A stretch of DNA of 64,000 nt from Escherichia coli. GTDB lineage: Bacteria; Pseudomonadota; Gammaproteobacteria; Enterobacterales; Enterobacteriaceae. The DNA lies in NCBI RefSeq assembly GCF_965641715.1, contig NZ_OZ282453.1; one strand, 5' to 3'. The notes under the pieces were generated by a model. It was not told where the DNA came from. It searched no databases and worked only from the letters and a program-made list of their open reading frames with translations. Within the stretch, counting starts at the first letter, position 1. Each line of letters starts with the position of its first letter. Shown here piece after piece: positions 7 through 21,668 of the stretch. The position numbers and the translations under genes were made by a program.

Positions 7-1515
7 TTACTGCTGCGGAATAGCGGGTACGACCGGAACGTTTAATGCCGGCATTGCAAACATACCAACGAAATCTTCCAGTGGCATTTTCTGCCCATTT
101 AACGTTATCTGACCGTTAGCATATTGCAGGCTGGTGGTGATGGTATTGTCCTGCAAGGTGGTCAGACGGAACATCTGCCCCATTGCTGATGCACCTTCAA
201 CTTGCTGTTTCGCCAGTTTTTTCGCTTGATCTTCCTGATAACCTTCCAGCTTCGCTACCTGAGTCATCAACTCAGTTGCCATATCCACCGGAATGGTCAG
301 TTTCGCATCCAGAGATTTAACCGAACGATCTACTTCCTGCGCCAGCGTTTGCGGCGCTTCTTTAGTCGTTGCCGGATCTTTCAGGAACAGCGACAGATTC
401 AGCGCACTTTCACCCTGACTGTTTTTCCAGCTTAGCGGCGCGATAGTAATCACCGGATCGCCTTTCAACATCAGCGGCAGGGCGCTAAAGAAGGCTTCCG
501 TCACTTTCTCCTGATAAAGTTCGGGATTGTTGGCAATTTCTGGCTGTGCCAGCAGCGCCTGAGTTTGCGCGTTATATTGCTGGCTAAACTGATGCCAGGC
601 TTCACCATCAATCTGGCCGACTTTTAAAGTCAGCTTGCCGCTGCCCAGATCCTGATTCTGTACCTTCAGGCTGTTTAGCGAGTAATCCAGTTGGCTATTG
701 ATCGTTTTACCGTCATTGACCAGATCCGATTTACCGCTGATCTCCATGCCTTCCAGCAGTGCCAGTTCTTTGCCTTCCACTGAAATGGTCATTTTTTCCA
801 GTGACAGTTTTTGGTTTCCTACGCGCTCACCAAAACTTGCCAGCGTGCTGGAACCGTCGGTTTTCAGATTATTAAAGGTCAACTGCACTTTCTGGTTGTA
901 TTCGTTAACTGCGTCTATCCGACCACTTTGCGCCTCCCCGGAAAGGGAGATAGCTTTGCCGTCTCTGTCAGCATTTAACTGGAACTCGCCGCCGCTAAAG
1001 GCGACTTTTTCATCCTTTTGCTCGTAATTCAGTGGCTTGAGCGAAATATCGGAACTGGAATCACCGCTGTAACCAATGCGCGAGTTAATCTCAAAAGGCG
1101 TTTCACCTTTTGCCATATCAAACAGTGGTTTGCTTACTTCGTTATTAACCAGCGTGGTTTGAATTGATGCCATCGACGGGATCAGGTTCAGTTTTTTAAG
1201 CTGGGCAAGGGGGAAGGGACCATGATCAACCGATTCGTTGAAGATGACGCTCTGACCGCTTTTAATCCACGGATTTTCTTTCCCGGCAATGGGTTTCACC
1301 AACAGTTGCAGCTGACTGCTGAATACGCCGCGATGATAGTTTTGATAACTCACTTCCAGGTTGGATTCAGGAGCGGTCAGTTTGAGTTGCGCGTTCGCCT
1401 GCGCGACCATCTCTTCGAGATGGGTTTCAATCTTCTTGCCTGTATACCATGCGCCGCCTGTCCAGACTACGCCTAGCGCAACAATGACGCCTACCGCTAC
1501 CAGCGATTTATTCAT
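7..1515 (-). CDS. ydgA: DUF945-family inner-membrane-associated protein YdgA
   Basis: 502-aa ORF with ATG start and N-terminal hydrophobic segment; length and sequence match recalled K-12 YdgA; position next to manA. Confidence 0.88.
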   Translation of the reverse strand: MNKSLVAVGVIVALGVVWTGGAWYTGKKIETHLEEMVAQANAQLKLTAPESNLEVSYQNYHRGVFSSQLQLLVKPIAGKENPWIKSGQSVIFNESVDHGPFPLAQLKKLNLIPSMASIQTTLVNNEVSKPLFDMAKGETPFEINSRIGYSGDSSSDISLKPLNYEQKDEKVAFSGGEFQLNADRDGKAISLSGEAQSGRIDAVNEYNQKVQLTFNNLKTDGSSTLASFGERVGNQKLSLEKMTISVEGKELALLEGMEISGKSDLVNDGKTINSQLDYSLNSLKVQNQDLGSGKLTLKVGQIDGEAWHQFSQQYNAQTQALLAQPEIANNPELYQEKVTEAFFSALPLMLKGDPVITIAPLSWKNSQGESALNLSLFLKDPATTKEAPQTLAQEVDRSVKSLDAKLTIPVDMATELMTQVAKLEGYQEDQAKKLAKQQVEGASAMGQMFRLTTLQDNTITTSLQYANGQITLNGQKMPLEDFVGMFAMPALNVPVVPAIPQQ

Positions 1516-1615
1516 AATGATTATCCATAAAATGAAATCAGGCGGACTGGCCGCCTGAAGGTGTTATAAGCCTTTAATAAGCTTAGCAAGAGATGTTAAT
1601 TTTTTCAGTAAGCTC

Positions 1616-2791
1616 TTACAGCTTGTTGTAAACACGCGCTAAACGGCCGTGGCCTTTGACAGTCACCGGTGATTCGTTGGCGGCAATAAACGCTGATTCA
1701 CCCGGTTTAAGCTGTAACTGCTGAGAACCTTTACACAGCGTTGCATCGCCTTCGACACAGAACAAAATGGCGGCACTCTGCTGGCTAATGGTGGTTTCTT
1801 TATCACTAAGGTCATGCAGCGAGAAGGCAAAATCATCCACAGGAATCGGGAAGTCCAGTTCTGCGCCTTGTTTCACCGGCTGGGTCAACAACTGGTTAGC
1901 CGGTTTGGCTTCGAACTTCACATTGGCAACCAGTTCCGGAATATCAATGTATTTAGGCGTCAGACCCGCACGCAGCACGTTATCGGAGTTTGCCATCACT
2001 TCCAGCGCCACGCCTTGCAGGTAAGCGTGCGGTGTTTCAGCGAACAGGAACATCGCTTCGCCAGGATTCAATTTCACCACATTCAGCAACAGCGGAGAGA
2101 ACAGGCCGCTGTCATCCGGGTAAAATTCAGAAATTAAACGAATCGTTTGCCACGGTTCACCCTGCTGACTGTCGAGCGCCGATTTTAAAATCGCCAGCGC
2201 GCGGGATTTTTCTTCACCCTGCATATTCAACAGGCTGGCGAACAGTTCGCTTAAACGTTCGGCATCAGGCTGTTGTAAAAAGTGAGCAATCGCCGGATGT
2301 GCACCTGCGACCGGCTGGAGTAGGGAGACAATCTCGGAAAATTCACGAAACGCGTTCATCGCAAGGAAAGGCGTCAGCGCAAAAACCAGCTCAGGCTTGT
2401 GGTTAGGATCTTTATAGTTACGCTCGGCGGCATCCATCGGGATACCTGCGGCATTTTCTTTGGCAAAACCGATTTCAGAATTGTGTTTGTTTGGATGAAC
2501 CTGAATGGAGAGCGGCTGTGCTGCGCATAATACTTTGAACAGGAAAGGCAGTTCGCCAAAGCGTTTGGCAACGGCCTCTCCGAGCAGAGTCGATTTATCA
2601 CTCTCAATCACATCACGCAGTGAAACGATATCTCCGGCGGCATTCTGCACTCGTGAACTGCTTTTCGGATGTGCGCCCATCCACAGCTCGGCCATCGGCT
2701 GGCTGGACGGATTTTCCATACCATAAAGTTCAGTCAACGCCGTTTTGCTGCCCCAGGCATAGTTTTGCACTGAGTTAATGAGTTTTTGCAT
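1616..2791 (-). CDS. manA: mannose-6-phosphate isomerase
   Basis: Six-frame ORF 1616..2869 trimmed to internal Met (MQKLINSVQNYAWGSK...) giving 391 aa, the known ManA length and N-terminus. Confidence 0.93.
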   Translation of the reverse strand: MQKLINSVQNYAWGSKTALTELYGMENPSSQPMAELWMGAHPKSSSRVQNAAGDIVSLRDVIESDKSTLLGEAVAKRFGELPFLFKVLCAAQPLSIQVHPNKHNSEIGFAKENAAGIPMDAAERNYKDPNHKPELVFALTPFLAMNAFREFSEIVSLLQPVAGAHPAIAHFLQQPDAERLSELFASLLNMQGEEKSRALAILKSALDSQQGEPWQTIRLISEFYPDDSGLFSPLLLNVVKLNPGEAMFLFAETPHAYLQGVALEVMANSDNVLRAGLTPKYIDIPELVANVKFEAKPANQLLTQPVKQGAELDFPIPVDDFAFSLHDLSDKETTISQQSAAILFCVEGDATLCKGSQQLQLKPGESAFIAANESPVTVKGHGRLARVYNKL

Positions 2792-2989
2792 GATCAATCC
2801 CTGTTTAAATGTGGAAATTAATCCCGCTATTAAAGCAAGAATCCTACGGGAAGTAACCTGGAGCCGCAAAAAGTCGTACTAGTCTCAGTTTTTGTTAAAA
2901 AAGTGTGTAGGATATTGTTACTCGCTTTTAACAGGGCAACGGAACACCCGCCCAGAGCATAACCAAACCAGGCAGTAAGTGAGAGAACA

Positions 2990-4636
2990 ATGTCAAACAA
3001 ACCCTTTCATTATCAGGCTCCTTTCCCACTCAAAAAAGATGATACCGAGTACTACCTGCTGACCAGCGAACATGTCAGCGTATCTGAATTTGAAGGGCAG
3101 GAGATTTTGAAAGTCGCACCCGAAGCGTTAACTCTGTTGGCGCGTCAGGCGTTTCATGATGCGTCGTTTATGCTGCGTCCGGCTCACCAACAACAGGTGG
3201 CCGACATTCTGCGTGACCCGGAGGCCAGCGAAAATGATAAATATGTGGCGCTGCAATTCCTGCGTAACTCCGACATCGCGGCGAAAGGCGTTCTGCCAAC
3301 CTGTCAAGATACCGGCACCGCGATTATTGTTGGTAAAAAAGGGCAGCGTGTATGGACCGGTGGTGGTGATGAAGCGGCGCTGGCGCGCGGTGTCTATAAC
3401 ACTTATATCGAAGATAATCTGCGCTACTCGCAAAACGCGCCGCTGGATATGTATAAAGAAGTGAATACCGGCACCAATCTGCCAGCGCAGATCGATCTTT
3501 ATGCCGTTGATGGCGACGAATACAAATTCCTCTGTATCGCCAAAGGTGGTGGTTCGGCAAACAAGACGTATCTCTATCAGGAAACCAAAGCGTTACTAAC
3601 GCCCGGAAAACTGAAAAATTACCTGGTTGAGAAGATGCGCACGCTGGGTACGGCGGCCTGTCCTCCGTATCATATTGCGTTCGTTATTGGTGGAACATCT
3701 GCAGAAACGAACCTTAAAACGGTGAAACTGGCTTCCGCTAAATACTATGATGAACTGCCAACGGAAGGGAATGAGCACGGTCAGGCGTTCCGCGATGTGG
3801 AACTGGAAAAAGAATTGCTGATCGAAGCGCAAAATCTTGGTCTGGGTGCGCAGTTTGGTGGTAAATACTTCGCTCACGACATCCGCGTGATTCGCCTGCC
3901 ACGTCACGGCGCATCCTGCCCGGTCGGTATGGGCGTCTCCTGCTCTGCTGACCGTAATATCAAAGCGAAGATCAACCGTCAGGGGATCTGGATCGAAAAA
4001 CTGGAACATAATCCAGGCAAATATATCCCGGAAGAGCTGCGCAAAGCGGGAGAAGGCGAAGCGGTGCGCGTTGACCTTAACCGTCCGATGAAAGAGATCC
4101 TCGCACAGTTGTCGCAGTATCCCGTTTCTACACGCTTATCGCTTAACGGCACGATTATCGTTGGTCGTGATATTGCTCACGCCAAACTGAAAGAGCGGAT
4201 GGATAACGGTGAAGGGCTGCCGCAATACATTAAAGATCATCCGATTTACTACGCGGGTCCGGCCAAAACGCCGGAAGGTTATGCCTCCGGTTCTCTTGGC
4301 CCAACGACCGCCGGACGGATGGATTCTTATGTCGATCAACTGCAAGCGCAGGGCGGAAGTATGATCATGCTGGCGAAAGGCAACCGCAGCCAGCAGGTGA
4401 CGGATGCCTGTAAAAAACACGGCGGCTTCTACCTTGGCAGTATCGGTGGTCCGGCCGCTGTATTGGCGCAGGGAAGTATTAAGAGCCTGGAATGTGTTGA
4501 ATATCCGGAACTGGGAATGGAAGCCATCTGGAAAATTGAAGTGGAAGATTTCCCGGCGTTTATTCTTGTGGATGATAAAGGAAATGACTTCTTTCAGCAG
4601 ATACAACTCACACAATGCACCCGCTGTGTGAAATAA
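2990..4636 (+). CDS. fumA: class I (Fe-S) fumarate hydratase
   Basis: 548-aa [27 protein letters not shown]..., matches recalled FumA length and sequence. Confidence 0.95.
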
Positions 4637-4640
4637 ACAG

Positions 4641-4667
4641 AGCCGCCCTTCGGGGCGGTTTTTTTAC
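4641..4667 (+). terminator. Rho-independent terminator after fumA
   Basis: GC stem gccgccc/gggcggt around a ttcg loop followed by a T-run, immediately after the fumA stop. Confidence 0.6.
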
Positions 4668-4778
4668 ATGGCACGAAAGACCAAATATTTGTTATCAAAT
4701 GGTAAATAATGAGTGAGCTAAAAGTTGCTTAACGAAAGCAAAACAGAAAGAAAAAATTAATCAGGTGAGGAGCAGGCC

Positions 4779-7142
<2,364 letters not shown>

Positions 7143-18585: not shown

Positions 18586-19407
18586 TTATTTTTGCGACAG
18601 TTGATCCAGCTTGTCGCGAAAACCGGTAACAGAAATGGCCCGGTTATCGGCGCGCCAGCGATCTTTCGCGGCAGGAGCCGAACTTTGCACCCCAATTAAT
18701 TGCCAGCCGTCATCGGTATGCAACATCAGAGGCGAACCGCTGTCACCCGGCAAGGTATCGCACTGATGTGACATCACCGACGTTTGCGCCCAGCCAGTCA
18801 CTTCACAGTTTTGATGACTGTACAACGTATCGAGATGATCTTCAGGGTATCCTGCCTGAGTCACTTTACGACCTGCCGCTTTTAATGCGGCGGTAAGCGC
18901 GGCTTTATCTCCCTCAAATAACGGCAACGGCGTAATGCCAGAAGGGGGATTACGTAGCACAATCAATCCGAAGTCCCACGGCGCGGCTGCGGGAGGTACA
19001 ATCCAACCATCCCCATCTGCTTTTAACCGCTTTCCCAGTGTCGGATCAACGCGGCCTTCTATGTCGTGGATGTCATAGCGCCAAAGACCTTTATTTGACA
19101 CAAAACGCAGCGCCACTGCTTTATCGGCTTTACCCTTTGGAGGTGTCAATAAACAGTGTCCTGCCGTTAATGCCAGATTGGGTGCAATCAGCGTCGCCGT
19201 ACATAAATTGCCGCTGGCCGTTTCCAGTTGCCCAACCGCATCCCACGGTGATTGGGTCGTGTCATTCACTGGCACACGATCATCATGACCAAAAAACAGG
19301 GTGCTGACCTCATCGTTTGCCGATTTGGCAATGTCTGGTTTATCTGCAAACACAAAAGCAGACGTCAAACTAATTGCACCCAACACTACAGCAATGGTTG
19401 TACGCAT
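18586..19407 (-). CDS. ydgD: putative periplasmic trypsin-like serine peptidase YdgD
   Basis: 273-aa ORF with signal peptide, TAGHC and GDSGSP serine-protease motifs. Confidence 0.88.
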
Positions 19408-19682
19408 ATCACACTCTGGTGGGTAATTATGATTATTAAAAGCAAACCCTCATAAATACTATAGACGGGACGGGATGAAAGTGGGAGTAAAATCAGATAA
19501 CTACAGTCAGGAAAGATAAAAACGGGCGGCAATCAGTGCGCATAAAATAAGGATGATCAGAATGAACTCAAAGCGATAACGGCCCACCATACTACCCTCC
19601 GCTAAAGGCGGTGCTAAACGTTACCCGCTTAGCACCGTAATTTTCAGGCGCGAGGGGGCGCGCCAGCATTACTGTTGAAAAC

Positions 19683-19991
19683 TTACGCTGCGGGTTGTGC
19701 AGCAGGTTTTGCCGGTTGCTGATGGCTGTGTTTCTTGGCGTGTTTCTTCGCTGCCTGCGCTTTTTGTTCAGGGGCTTTCTGTTCAGCTTTCGTATTTTTA
19801 TGATGCTTTTTAGCCGCCTGCGCTTTCTGGGCAGGTGCTGCTTTATGCTGTTTTTTATGATGTGTAGTTTTCGCCGGCGCTGCTTTGGTGGTCGTCGCAG
19901 TCGGAGCAGGTGTGGTCGCAGTCTCTGCAGCAAAGGCGGCAGAAGACAGACCCATAGCAGCGGCAACAACCAGAGCTAATACTTTTTTCAT
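19683..19991 (-). CDS. asr: acid shock protein Asr (Lys/His/Ala-rich periplasmic protein)
   Basis: ORF 19683..20018 trimmed to [21 protein letters not shown]... (102 aa) with SD gaggg 7 nt upstream; internal KAQAAKKH repeats. Confidence 0.88.
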
Positions 19992-20414
19992 TGTCATACC
20001 CTCAATTTGTTTTTTCATTTAACCCCACTGCGGGGCCGTTGAAATAACTATATCCCTGGGAATGGCAGACTTCCGTGAGTGGTTGGTTTCAGCGTGTAAC
20101 GATATGTACAAACGCTGAATAAATTACAGCGTTGATAATAACGTATTGTGACTTAAGGGAAATTTAGCTACCAATAATAGTAGTCTTGATCGGGTTAACT
20201 ATTTTACTACTTACAAAGCGGTAGAATAACTGCGCATCAGTAATAAATGACACACAGCAAAATGAATCCGTTTATTTGGGTACTTATAATCCTGATGACG
20301 CTAGACGCGCTGCGGGAATTGGCTGGCGCTTCGTCTATTTTAGGATGGCTATTAACGTTGGTTTGAGCAGGCAATAAGTCCGGACGGGTATTTACCGCAG
20401 TCCGGACTTATTTT

Positions 20415-21668
20415 TCAGGCGTGCAGACGACGATGCAAACGCGTCCCGACCAGCAGAGCAATGACCAGCATCAGAGCAATAAATGCGCCGACGCCGTTCC
20501 AGCCATAGTTATGCCAGAAAACACCACCCAGCGTCCCGGCAATACTCGACCCCAGATAGTAACTGAACAGATACAGCGAGGAGGCCTGGCCTTTAGCGCG
20601 TTTTGCGCGGGGGCCGATCCAGCTGCTGGCTACTGAGTGGGCTGCGAAGAATCCGGCTGAGAAGAGTAACATTCCGGCAAAGATCAGCCACAGCGAGCTG
20701 AATAAGGTCATCAGTAAACCAAACAGCATAACCCCCGTCGAAAACAACATCACTGGACCACGCCCATAGCGGGTGGTCATGGTTCCGGCTTTGGGTGAGC
20801 TCCATGTACCGGTCAAATAAGCCAGCGATAATAAGCCAACCACGGCCTGACTGACATGCCAGGGGGAGAGCATCAACCGATAGCCGATGTAATTAAACAG
20901 CGTGACGAACGACCCCATCAGCAAAAAGCCTTCTGCGAACAATAACGGTAATCCCCGGTCACGCCAGTGCAGACGAAAGTTGATAAACAACGACTTAGGT
21001 CGCAGCGAAGTCGGGCGAAAATGGCGTGATACCGGGAGGATTTTCCAGAACATCAACGCCGAGGCTAGCGCGAAACAACCGATAGCCGCCAGAGCAATTC
21101 GCCAGTTGAAAAAGTCCGTGAAGACACCACTAATTAAGCGTCCGCTCATGCCGCCAATTGAGTTGCCGCTGATATACAACCCCATCGAAAAGGCCACGAA
21201 ACTGGGATGGATTTCCTCGCTAAGATAAGTCATGCCAACAGCTGCCACGCCACTTAACGAAAGCCCAATCAAGGCGCGCATAATCAAAATGCCGTGCCAG
21301 CTGGTCATCATTGTCGAAAGTAACGTACAAATGGAGGCCAACAGTAGCGCCGTGACCATCACTGGTTTGCGACCAATGGCATCGGATAGGGGGCCAGTAA
21401 ACAGCAAACCAATAGCCAACATCGCCGTGGAAATGGACAGTGAAATACTACTGTTCGCGGGCGTTAAGCCAAACTCCTGCGAAAGCACCGGAAGGATAGG
21501 CTGCACACAATAGAGAAGTGCAAATGTTGCCAGTCCGGCAGAGAACAGCGCCAGGGTGACGCGCATAAATTGCGGCGTACCGCGTTTAATAAATTGATTT
21601 GGCTGAGAAATGCTTTGCTTGTCAGTGTCGCTTGCCGGAGCGCCATCAACAGTTGTAGTACGGCTCAC
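20415..21668 (-). CDS. ynfM: MFS transporter YnfM
   Basis: 417-aa 12-TM MFS-like ORF divergent from LysR-type ynfL. Confidence 0.9.
   Translation of the reverse strand: MSRTTTVDGAPASDTDKQSISQPNQFIKRGTPQFMRVTLALFSAGLATFALLYCVQPILPVLSQEFGLTPANSSISLSISTAMLAIGLLFTGPLSDAIGRKPVMVTALLLASICTLLSTMMTSWHGILIMRALIGLSLSGVAAVGMTYLSEEIHPSFVAFSMGLYISGNSIGGMSGRLISGVFTDFFNWRIALAAIGCFALASALMFWKILPVSRHFRPTSLRPKSLFINFRLHWRDRGLPLLFAEGFLLMGSFVTLFNYIGYRLMLSPWHVSQAVVGLLSLAYLTGTWSSPKAGTMTTRYGRGPVMLFSTGVMLFGLLMTLFSSLWLIFAGMLLFSAGFFAAHSVASSWIGPRAKRAKGQASSLYLFSYYLGSSIAGTLGGVFWHNYGWNGVGAFIALMLVIALLVGTRLHRRLHA

Follow-up and report, generated by a model that had tools for sequence, protein, structure and literature searches.

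This study investigated whether a short repetitive gene in a 64,000-nucleotide stretch of Escherichia coli DNA (hereafter, the window) is a locus in which the number of repeats changes often and strains routinely differ, or one in which such changes are rare. A preliminary description of the window, made from the sequence alone, had identified the gene as the acid shock gene asr, placed it at 19683-19991, and described its coding sequence (CDS) as dominated by repeats of Lys, Ala, His, and Gln (KAQAAKKH units), overlapped by long spurious open reading frames (ORFs) on both strands, and prone to repeat-number variation. The results revealed that the locus is almost certainly the chromosomal gene asr, located at the head of the asr-ydgU (samT) operon, with rare gain and loss of repeat units. 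The gene, its regulation by RstA and PhoB, and its function as a disordered periplasmic chaperone have already been published; the naturally occurring one-, two-, and three-unit alleles and the origin of the over-long Asr entries in databases are minor new facts.

Identity and context of the asr gene

The product of the ORF at 19683-19991 (minus strand) matched the Pfam profile PF06392 (Asr) over residues 22-102 at 46.6 bits, compared with a cut-off of 24.9, and the NCBIfam equivalog NF033636 ('acid resistance repetitive basic protein Asr') at 99.9 bits, compared with a cut-off of 50. We searched the asr DNA against a survey set of 5426 complete E. coli genomes and obtained a match of 98-100% identity in 5422 of them; the feature at the matched locus was annotated asr in all 40 listed records, a sample spread over the full ranking. 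The DNA was 99.7% identical to asr of E. coli K-12, and the two proteins, which are equal in length, repeats, neighbors, and promoter boxes, differed at a single residue (A25 in the window, T25 in K-12), without any difference of substance. The copy in strain 214-4 was 100% identical to the window allele (the ETATT form). Aligning the K-12 annotation to the window revealed the same neighbors as in K-12, namely ynfM, a small ORF, asr, ydgU, ydgD (ORF at 18586-19407), mdtI, and mdtJ, and the order ynfM-asr-ydgU-ydgD, with ydgU downstream of asr, was also found in E. fergusonii.

All the sequence-level features that define the Asr family were present, including the profiles, the basic repeats, the export signal, the context, and the promoter boxes, and no evidence against the identification was found. 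The Pfam and NCBIfam profiles, the RefSeq annotation, and the synteny confirmed the gene name given in the preliminary description, the coordinates of which were exact.

Several peculiarities were observed in individual genomes. Four genomes yielded no asr match, at least one complete genome had two asr places, and one of the 5426 asr places in the complete-genome search lay on a record classed as a plasmid. In E. coli ET450, mdtJ, three genes away from asr, was annotated as frameshifted (4523-4889 of the fetched locus).

Composition, export signal, and start codon

Lys, Ala, His, and Gln constitute 66% of the 102-aa precursor and 72% of the 81-aa mature part, and the dominance of these residues was thus as described earlier. 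With Thr and Pro included, the proportion in the mature part reaches 94%; Lys accounts for 21% and His for 10% of this part, compared with 4% for acidic residues. We assigned a Sec-type signal peptide by inspection (Table 1), after which the mature part begins with AETATT, and the N-terminus is conserved across homologues.

A canonical Shine-Dalgarno sequence has been stated for each gene of the asr operon (PMC13425233), and the one preceding asr in the window is listed in Table 1. An in-frame ATG is also present at 20018 (minus strand; region 20004-20018), 27 nt upstream of the asr start, from which a 111-aa ORF (MKKQIEGMT...) can be read. Some database entries use this upstream ATG, and RefSeq uses the ATG at 19991. 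The upstream ATG is probably not the asr start because the corresponding codon is CTG in E. fergusonii.

Repeat architecture

The motif QKAQAAKKH occurs exactly twice in the protein, at residues 55 and 76, and the two copies are 21 aa (63 nt) apart. The KAQAAKKH units noted earlier are therefore present, their number being exactly two, and they lie inside a degenerate 63-nt repeat (Table 1). The conserved 36-nt DNA cores of the two units are 78% identical, the full 63-nt units are 57% identical, and the longest in-register identity is the 11-nt sequence AAAGCGCAGGC. The 12-nt tandem was the only array reported by TRF, which returned none for the 63-nt unit. Further small repeats comprised one pair spaced 15 nt and one pair spaced 21 nt. 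A near-perfect tandem tract, which is a feature of contingency loci, was not found at asr.

Table 1. Features of the asr locus in the window (positions are those of the window)
Feature	Position	Strand	Basis or remark
asr CDS, 102 aa plus stop	19683..19991	minus	ORF, Pfam and NCBIfam profiles, RefSeq annotation
Sec-type signal peptide, codons 1-21 (MKK, hydrophobic core, AFA then A)	19929..19991	minus	Read from the sequence
Direct repeat pair spaced 21 nt, Thr/Pro/Ala-rich N-terminal part	19891..19930		Site of the MS1665 21-nt deletion (TATTPAP)
63-nt repeat unit 1	19764..19826	minus	Segment lost in UC4224 and duplicated in O157:H7 M1300706002
63-nt repeat unit 2	19701..19763	minus	Full-length identity to unit 1, 57%
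AAAGCGCAGGC, first copy of the 11-nt identity	19816..19826	minus	Position of the unit loss and gain events
AAAGCGCAGGC, second copy of the 11-nt identity	19753..19763	minus	Sequence comparison
12-nt tandem AAGAAACACGCC / AAGAAACACAGC (KKHA KKHS)	19725..19748	minus	TRF array 19723-19753, 2.5 copies
A6 run, codons 2-3	19983..19988	minus	A5 in strain O177:H21
A6 run (HHKKQH)	19851..19856	minus	Main frameshift site in database proteins (HHKNSIKQ...)
A5 run	19807..19811	minus	A6 in APEC IMT5155
125-aa ORF, other frame of the coding strand, extending 91 nt past the asr stop	19592..19969	minus	Spurious; frame entered by frameshift alleles
94-aa antisense ORF	19695..19979	plus	Spurious, compositional
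Shine-Dalgarno sequence GAGGG	19999..20003	minus	7 nt before the ATG at 19991
Candidate -10 hexamer TATAGT, asr promoter	20047..20052	minus	Read from the sequence; position fits the box coordinates of PMC9026648
Candidate PhoB box CTCACGGAAGTCTGCCAT, overlapping the -35 region	20062..20079	minus	Placed from spacing, by inspection
RstA box TACATATCGTTACA	20095..20108	minus	Exact match to the pattern TACANNTNGTTACA
ydgU / samT, 27-aa membrane peptide	19507..19590	minus	Translation MVGRYRFEFILIILILCALIAARFYLS; RefSeq annotation; co-transcribed with asr (PMC13425233)

Length alleles among complete E. coli genomes

In 39 of the 40 sampled records, which were spread over the full ranking, asr was exactly 309 nt long. 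In the 40th, from strain ZYB39, the gene was interrupted by an IS66-family element. This ISCro1-like element (tnpA-tnpB-transposase) occupies 235-3250 of the locus fetched from NZ_CP098234.1, its window equivalent is at about 19740, and the PGAP annotation retains a 360-nt 'asr' extending into the end of the IS.

We then searched the 5426 genomes with probes spanning every hypothetical in-frame deletion or duplication junction with microhomology. The junction probes had longer spacers and were trimmed to share no 28-nt word with any known normal allele; an earlier set had produced 1,700 low-identity matches, which arose from 28-nt seeds made by SNPs and from alignments across short N spacers. 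The IS junction of ZYB39, which served as the positive control, was recovered by the probes; its control probe also matched unrelated IS ends.

Four in-frame length alleles were found, all of them at direct repeats, and each was checked by fetching and aligning the locus. The loss of one 63-nt unit results in a gene of 246 nt (81 aa) with a single QKAQAAKKH motif in UC4224, UC4315, and UC4316, and the gain of one such unit results in a gene of 372 nt (123 aa) with three motifs in O157:H7 M1300706002, 6535WT, and 6535NalR. The junction of both 63-nt events lies inside the 11-nt identity. Two motifs are retained in the remaining alleles, one of 297 nt (98 aa) that lost one 12-nt tandem copy (KKHA) and occurs in 10 genomes with a K-12-like haplotype, including 14EC001, and one of 288 nt (95 aa) that lost 21 nt (TATTPAP) and occurs in MS1665. 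The carriers of the 12-nt deletion differ from each other and from K-12 by 1-5 SNPs per 6 kb of flanking sequence.

Repeat-mediated length variants were carried by 17 of 5422 genomes (0.3%), representing at least four events; the 17 genomes are a lower bound, the probe panel being sensitive to indels with at least 4-5 nt of junction microhomology in sequences near the window allele. The number of the main 21-aa unit was altered in 6 of the 5422. A follow-up probe panel revealed no further length allele in the 5426 genomes. Only one record fell below 95% identity in the genome search, which is consistent with the 21-nt gap of MS1665 (288/309 = 93%); the occurrence of a single such record speaks against many single-alignment gaps longer than about 15 nt.

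Two groups of probe matches were rejected as noise. The four residual matches of the follow-up panel each covered 28 nt on one side of the probe and were attributed to SNPs. The 63-nt probes also produced 194 matches at 94% identity, and the genes of EA2 (matched by the deletion probe) and LF82 (matched by the duplication probe) were both of the normal 309 nt.

If the length variants were assembly or sequencing artefacts, they would not be real alleles. The homopolymer frameshifts of asr do resemble typical sequencing errors and are common among proteins from draft and metagenome assemblies. The 63-, 21-, and 12-nt changes, however, are in-frame, far shorter than any read, and clean at the nucleotide level; the 63-nt loss and the 63-nt gain were each found in 3 separate finished assemblies and the 12-nt loss in 10, and the length variants carry RefSeq protein accessions of their own. 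An artefactual origin is thus very unlikely, and we regard the four length variants as real alleles.

Rate of repeat-number change

The question then is whether asr is a hypervariable locus of the contingency type. The finding of alleles with one, two, and three units within E. coli, together with the 12-nt and 21-nt repeat-mediated deletions, would be in keeping with such a locus, and between genera the motif count also ranges from 1 to 3: the QKAQAAKKH core occurs once in Yersinia and Brenneria corticis, twice in E. coli, E. fergusonii, and some Serratia, and three times in Pectobacterium aroidearum and a Serratia-like protein from a metagenome. Within E. coli, however, the unit number differed in only 6 and the length in only 17 of 5422 genomes, and each 63-nt variant was found in three isolates that are related to one another (the UC4224 series and the 6535/M1300706002 O157:H7 series). 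Furthermore, the diverged 63-nt units, with no more than 11 nt of uninterrupted identity and no TRF array, are unlike perfect tandem tracts. Frequent differences in repeat number between strains, the second feature of contingency loci, were not found either. Frequent repeat-number change at this gene is accordingly very improbable. With both class-defining features tested and absent, asr is not a contingency locus; its repeats evolve by unit gain and loss, and they do so slowly.

The same comparison bears on the proneness to repeat-number variation claimed in the preliminary description, which had proposed comparing the repeat copy number among strains. Across the 5426 genomes, an identical structure in all strains was not seen. 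The claim holds in kind, since one-, two-, and three-unit alleles exist, but not in degree.

The phase-variable simple-sequence loci of Haemophilus and Neisseria similarly contain an intragenic repeat with gain and loss of units between strains. In contrast to these contingency loci, asr has two diverged copies that undergo rare, in-frame changes (0.3%) and exhibits no on/off switching.

Alternative reading frames and chimeric Asr entries

Apart from the 125-aa and 94-aa ORFs (Table 1), two further plus-strand ORFs of 38 and 45 aa lie over asr. Inside the CDS, the uninterrupted lengths of the two long alternative frames are 97 and 98 codons. After the codons of the mature part were shuffled, the same two frames remained open for at least 90 codons in 2000 of 2000 shuffles; such openness of two alternative frames was seen in 8 of 261 in-frame segments of 309 nt taken from the remaining long ORFs of the window. 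The 103 codons of asr contain T at 5 first and 9 second positions, and both frames are open because this codon set is almost devoid of T at positions 1 and 2.

We considered whether either the 125-aa sense or the 94-aa antisense ORF is a real overlapping gene. Both are long, double openness is uncommon in the window, and frameshift alleles continue into the 125-aa frame; the shuffles nevertheless indicate that no selection is needed to keep the two frames open. In E. fergusonii, stops interrupt the sense alternative frame, the longest run of which is 59 codons, and the products of both frames lack a family signature of their own. RefSeq annotates nothing at either frame, and the database proteins that contain the alternative-frame sequence are solely fusions to the Asr N-terminus. 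The probability of an overlapping gene is therefore minimal. Both long ORFs are spurious, as had been noted earlier, and the shuffle test identified them as compositional.

Many E. coli 'Asr' entries of differing length (94 to 141 aa) were retrieved in the protein search. Nine public E. coli proteins, 110-141 aa in length and in some cases named 'Asr' by their source, consist of the Asr N-terminus fused to the 125-aa alternative frame. An interpretation of the long 'Asr' entries (132/141 aa) as repeat expansions was rejected; they are one-base frameshifts that read to the stop at 19592. Most of the chimeras originate from draft and metagenome assemblies, and homopolymer frameshifts in asr were found in two of the 5426 complete genomes, O177:H21 and APEC IMT5155. 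The gene of O177:H21 has been re-called from Met13 and so lacks most of the signal peptide, and that of APEC IMT5155 is annotated as a frameshifted pseudogene.

These results revealed that the composition of asr keeps another frame open for 125 codons, and that single-base shifts at the A5 and A6 runs generate long chimeras that are still labelled Asr. Because of these frameshift chimeras, length differences of Asr in protein databases should not be read as repeat expansion.

Exact look-ups in a large protein collection returned no full-length E. coli Asr, whether of 102 or 111 aa, of the K-12 or the window allele, or of the four length variants. Because the canonical protein is absent, an Asr length census from this collection is unusable. 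The collection does contain frameshifted or truncated Asr forms and the E. fergusonii orthologue. Low-complexity filtering is a possible cause of the absence of full-length Asr.

Promoter and operon

The asr promoter has been reported to contain an RstA box at -77 to -55 and a PhoB box at -39 to -22 (PMC9026648). We identified an RstA box in the window (Table 1), and its pattern TACANNTNGTTACA had only one other site in the 64 kb, with 1 mismatch. The spacing of this box, the candidate PhoB box, and the TATAGT hexamer agrees with the reported positions. A generic sigma-70 scan detected no asr promoter, as expected for an activator-dependent promoter, and Rfam returned no RNA family in 19000-20800.

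In a previous study, asr and ydgU/samT were described as an RstA-dependent operon, in which SamT binds the kinase RstB in a negative feedback and Asr has a positive effect at neutral pH (PMC13425233). The 92-nt spacer between the two genes contains an inverted repeat with 12-nt arms (CGGTGCTAAACG / CGCTTAGCACCG) at 19609-19637 and a G+C-rich palindrome (GGCGCGAGGGGGCGCGCC) at 19646-19663, both without a T tract. These structures could be attenuating or processing elements that set the asr:samT ratio.

The small ORF between asr and ynfM, at 20247-20366 (plus strand), encodes 39 aa (MTHSKMNPFIWVLIILMTLD...) and is annotated by RefSeq as a 'KPN_01571 family protein'. Its called length varies by genome (120, 105, or 72 nt).

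Discussion

The Asr proteins of E. fergusonii, Yersinia, Serratia, Pectobacterium, Brenneria, and Salmonella have, as in E. coli, a signal peptide, a basic Lys/Ala/His/Gln composition, and the invariant core QKAQAAKKH. The spacing of the units differs, being 23 aa in E. fergusonii Asr and 21 aa in the Asr of the window.

At pH 4.4, asr accounts for about 2% of Ribo-seq footprints and is among the most strongly induced genes (roughly 1000-fold), and its product has been characterized as an intrinsically disordered chaperone/aggregase of the periplasm with a supporting role in outer-membrane integrity (PMC10746267). According to the literature, HdeA and HdeB, similar to Asr, protect periplasmic proteins at low pH; they have no sequence relationship with Asr. 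HdeA and HdeB fold as dimers and unfold when the pH falls, whereas Asr has been described as constitutively disordered and charge-driven (PMC10746267).

On the basis of these reports and the features described here, we propose that low pH or limiting phosphate would lead RstA and PhoB to activate the asr promoter, and that the 102-aa precursor would be exported through its Sec signal peptide. The mature protein, strongly basic and presumably intrinsically disordered, is built around the two 21-aa units carrying QKAQAAKKH; in the periplasm it would act, as the literature indicates, as a charge-dependent chaperone/aggregase that, in acid, protects envelope proteins and the integrity of the outer membrane. 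The repeats appear to be old and have diverged at the DNA level, and the rare gains and losses of units probably arise through slippage or through illegitimate recombination at short stretches of identity (11, 9, and 9 nt). The slowness of this process probably reflects the shortness of the uninterrupted identity between the copies, which would not sustain homologous recombination efficiently.

The alleles with one, two, and three units belong to the lineage of the cheese isolate UC4224, typical E. coli, and an O157:H7 lineage, respectively. We consider it unlikely that they are functional variants under lineage-specific selection rather than neutral noise. A 21-aa unit contributes roughly six Lys and two or three His; if the alleles are indeed functional, the number of units would tune the net charge of Asr and possibly its processing. 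The natural one-, two-, and three-unit alleles provide ready material for testing net charge in a disordered chaperone.
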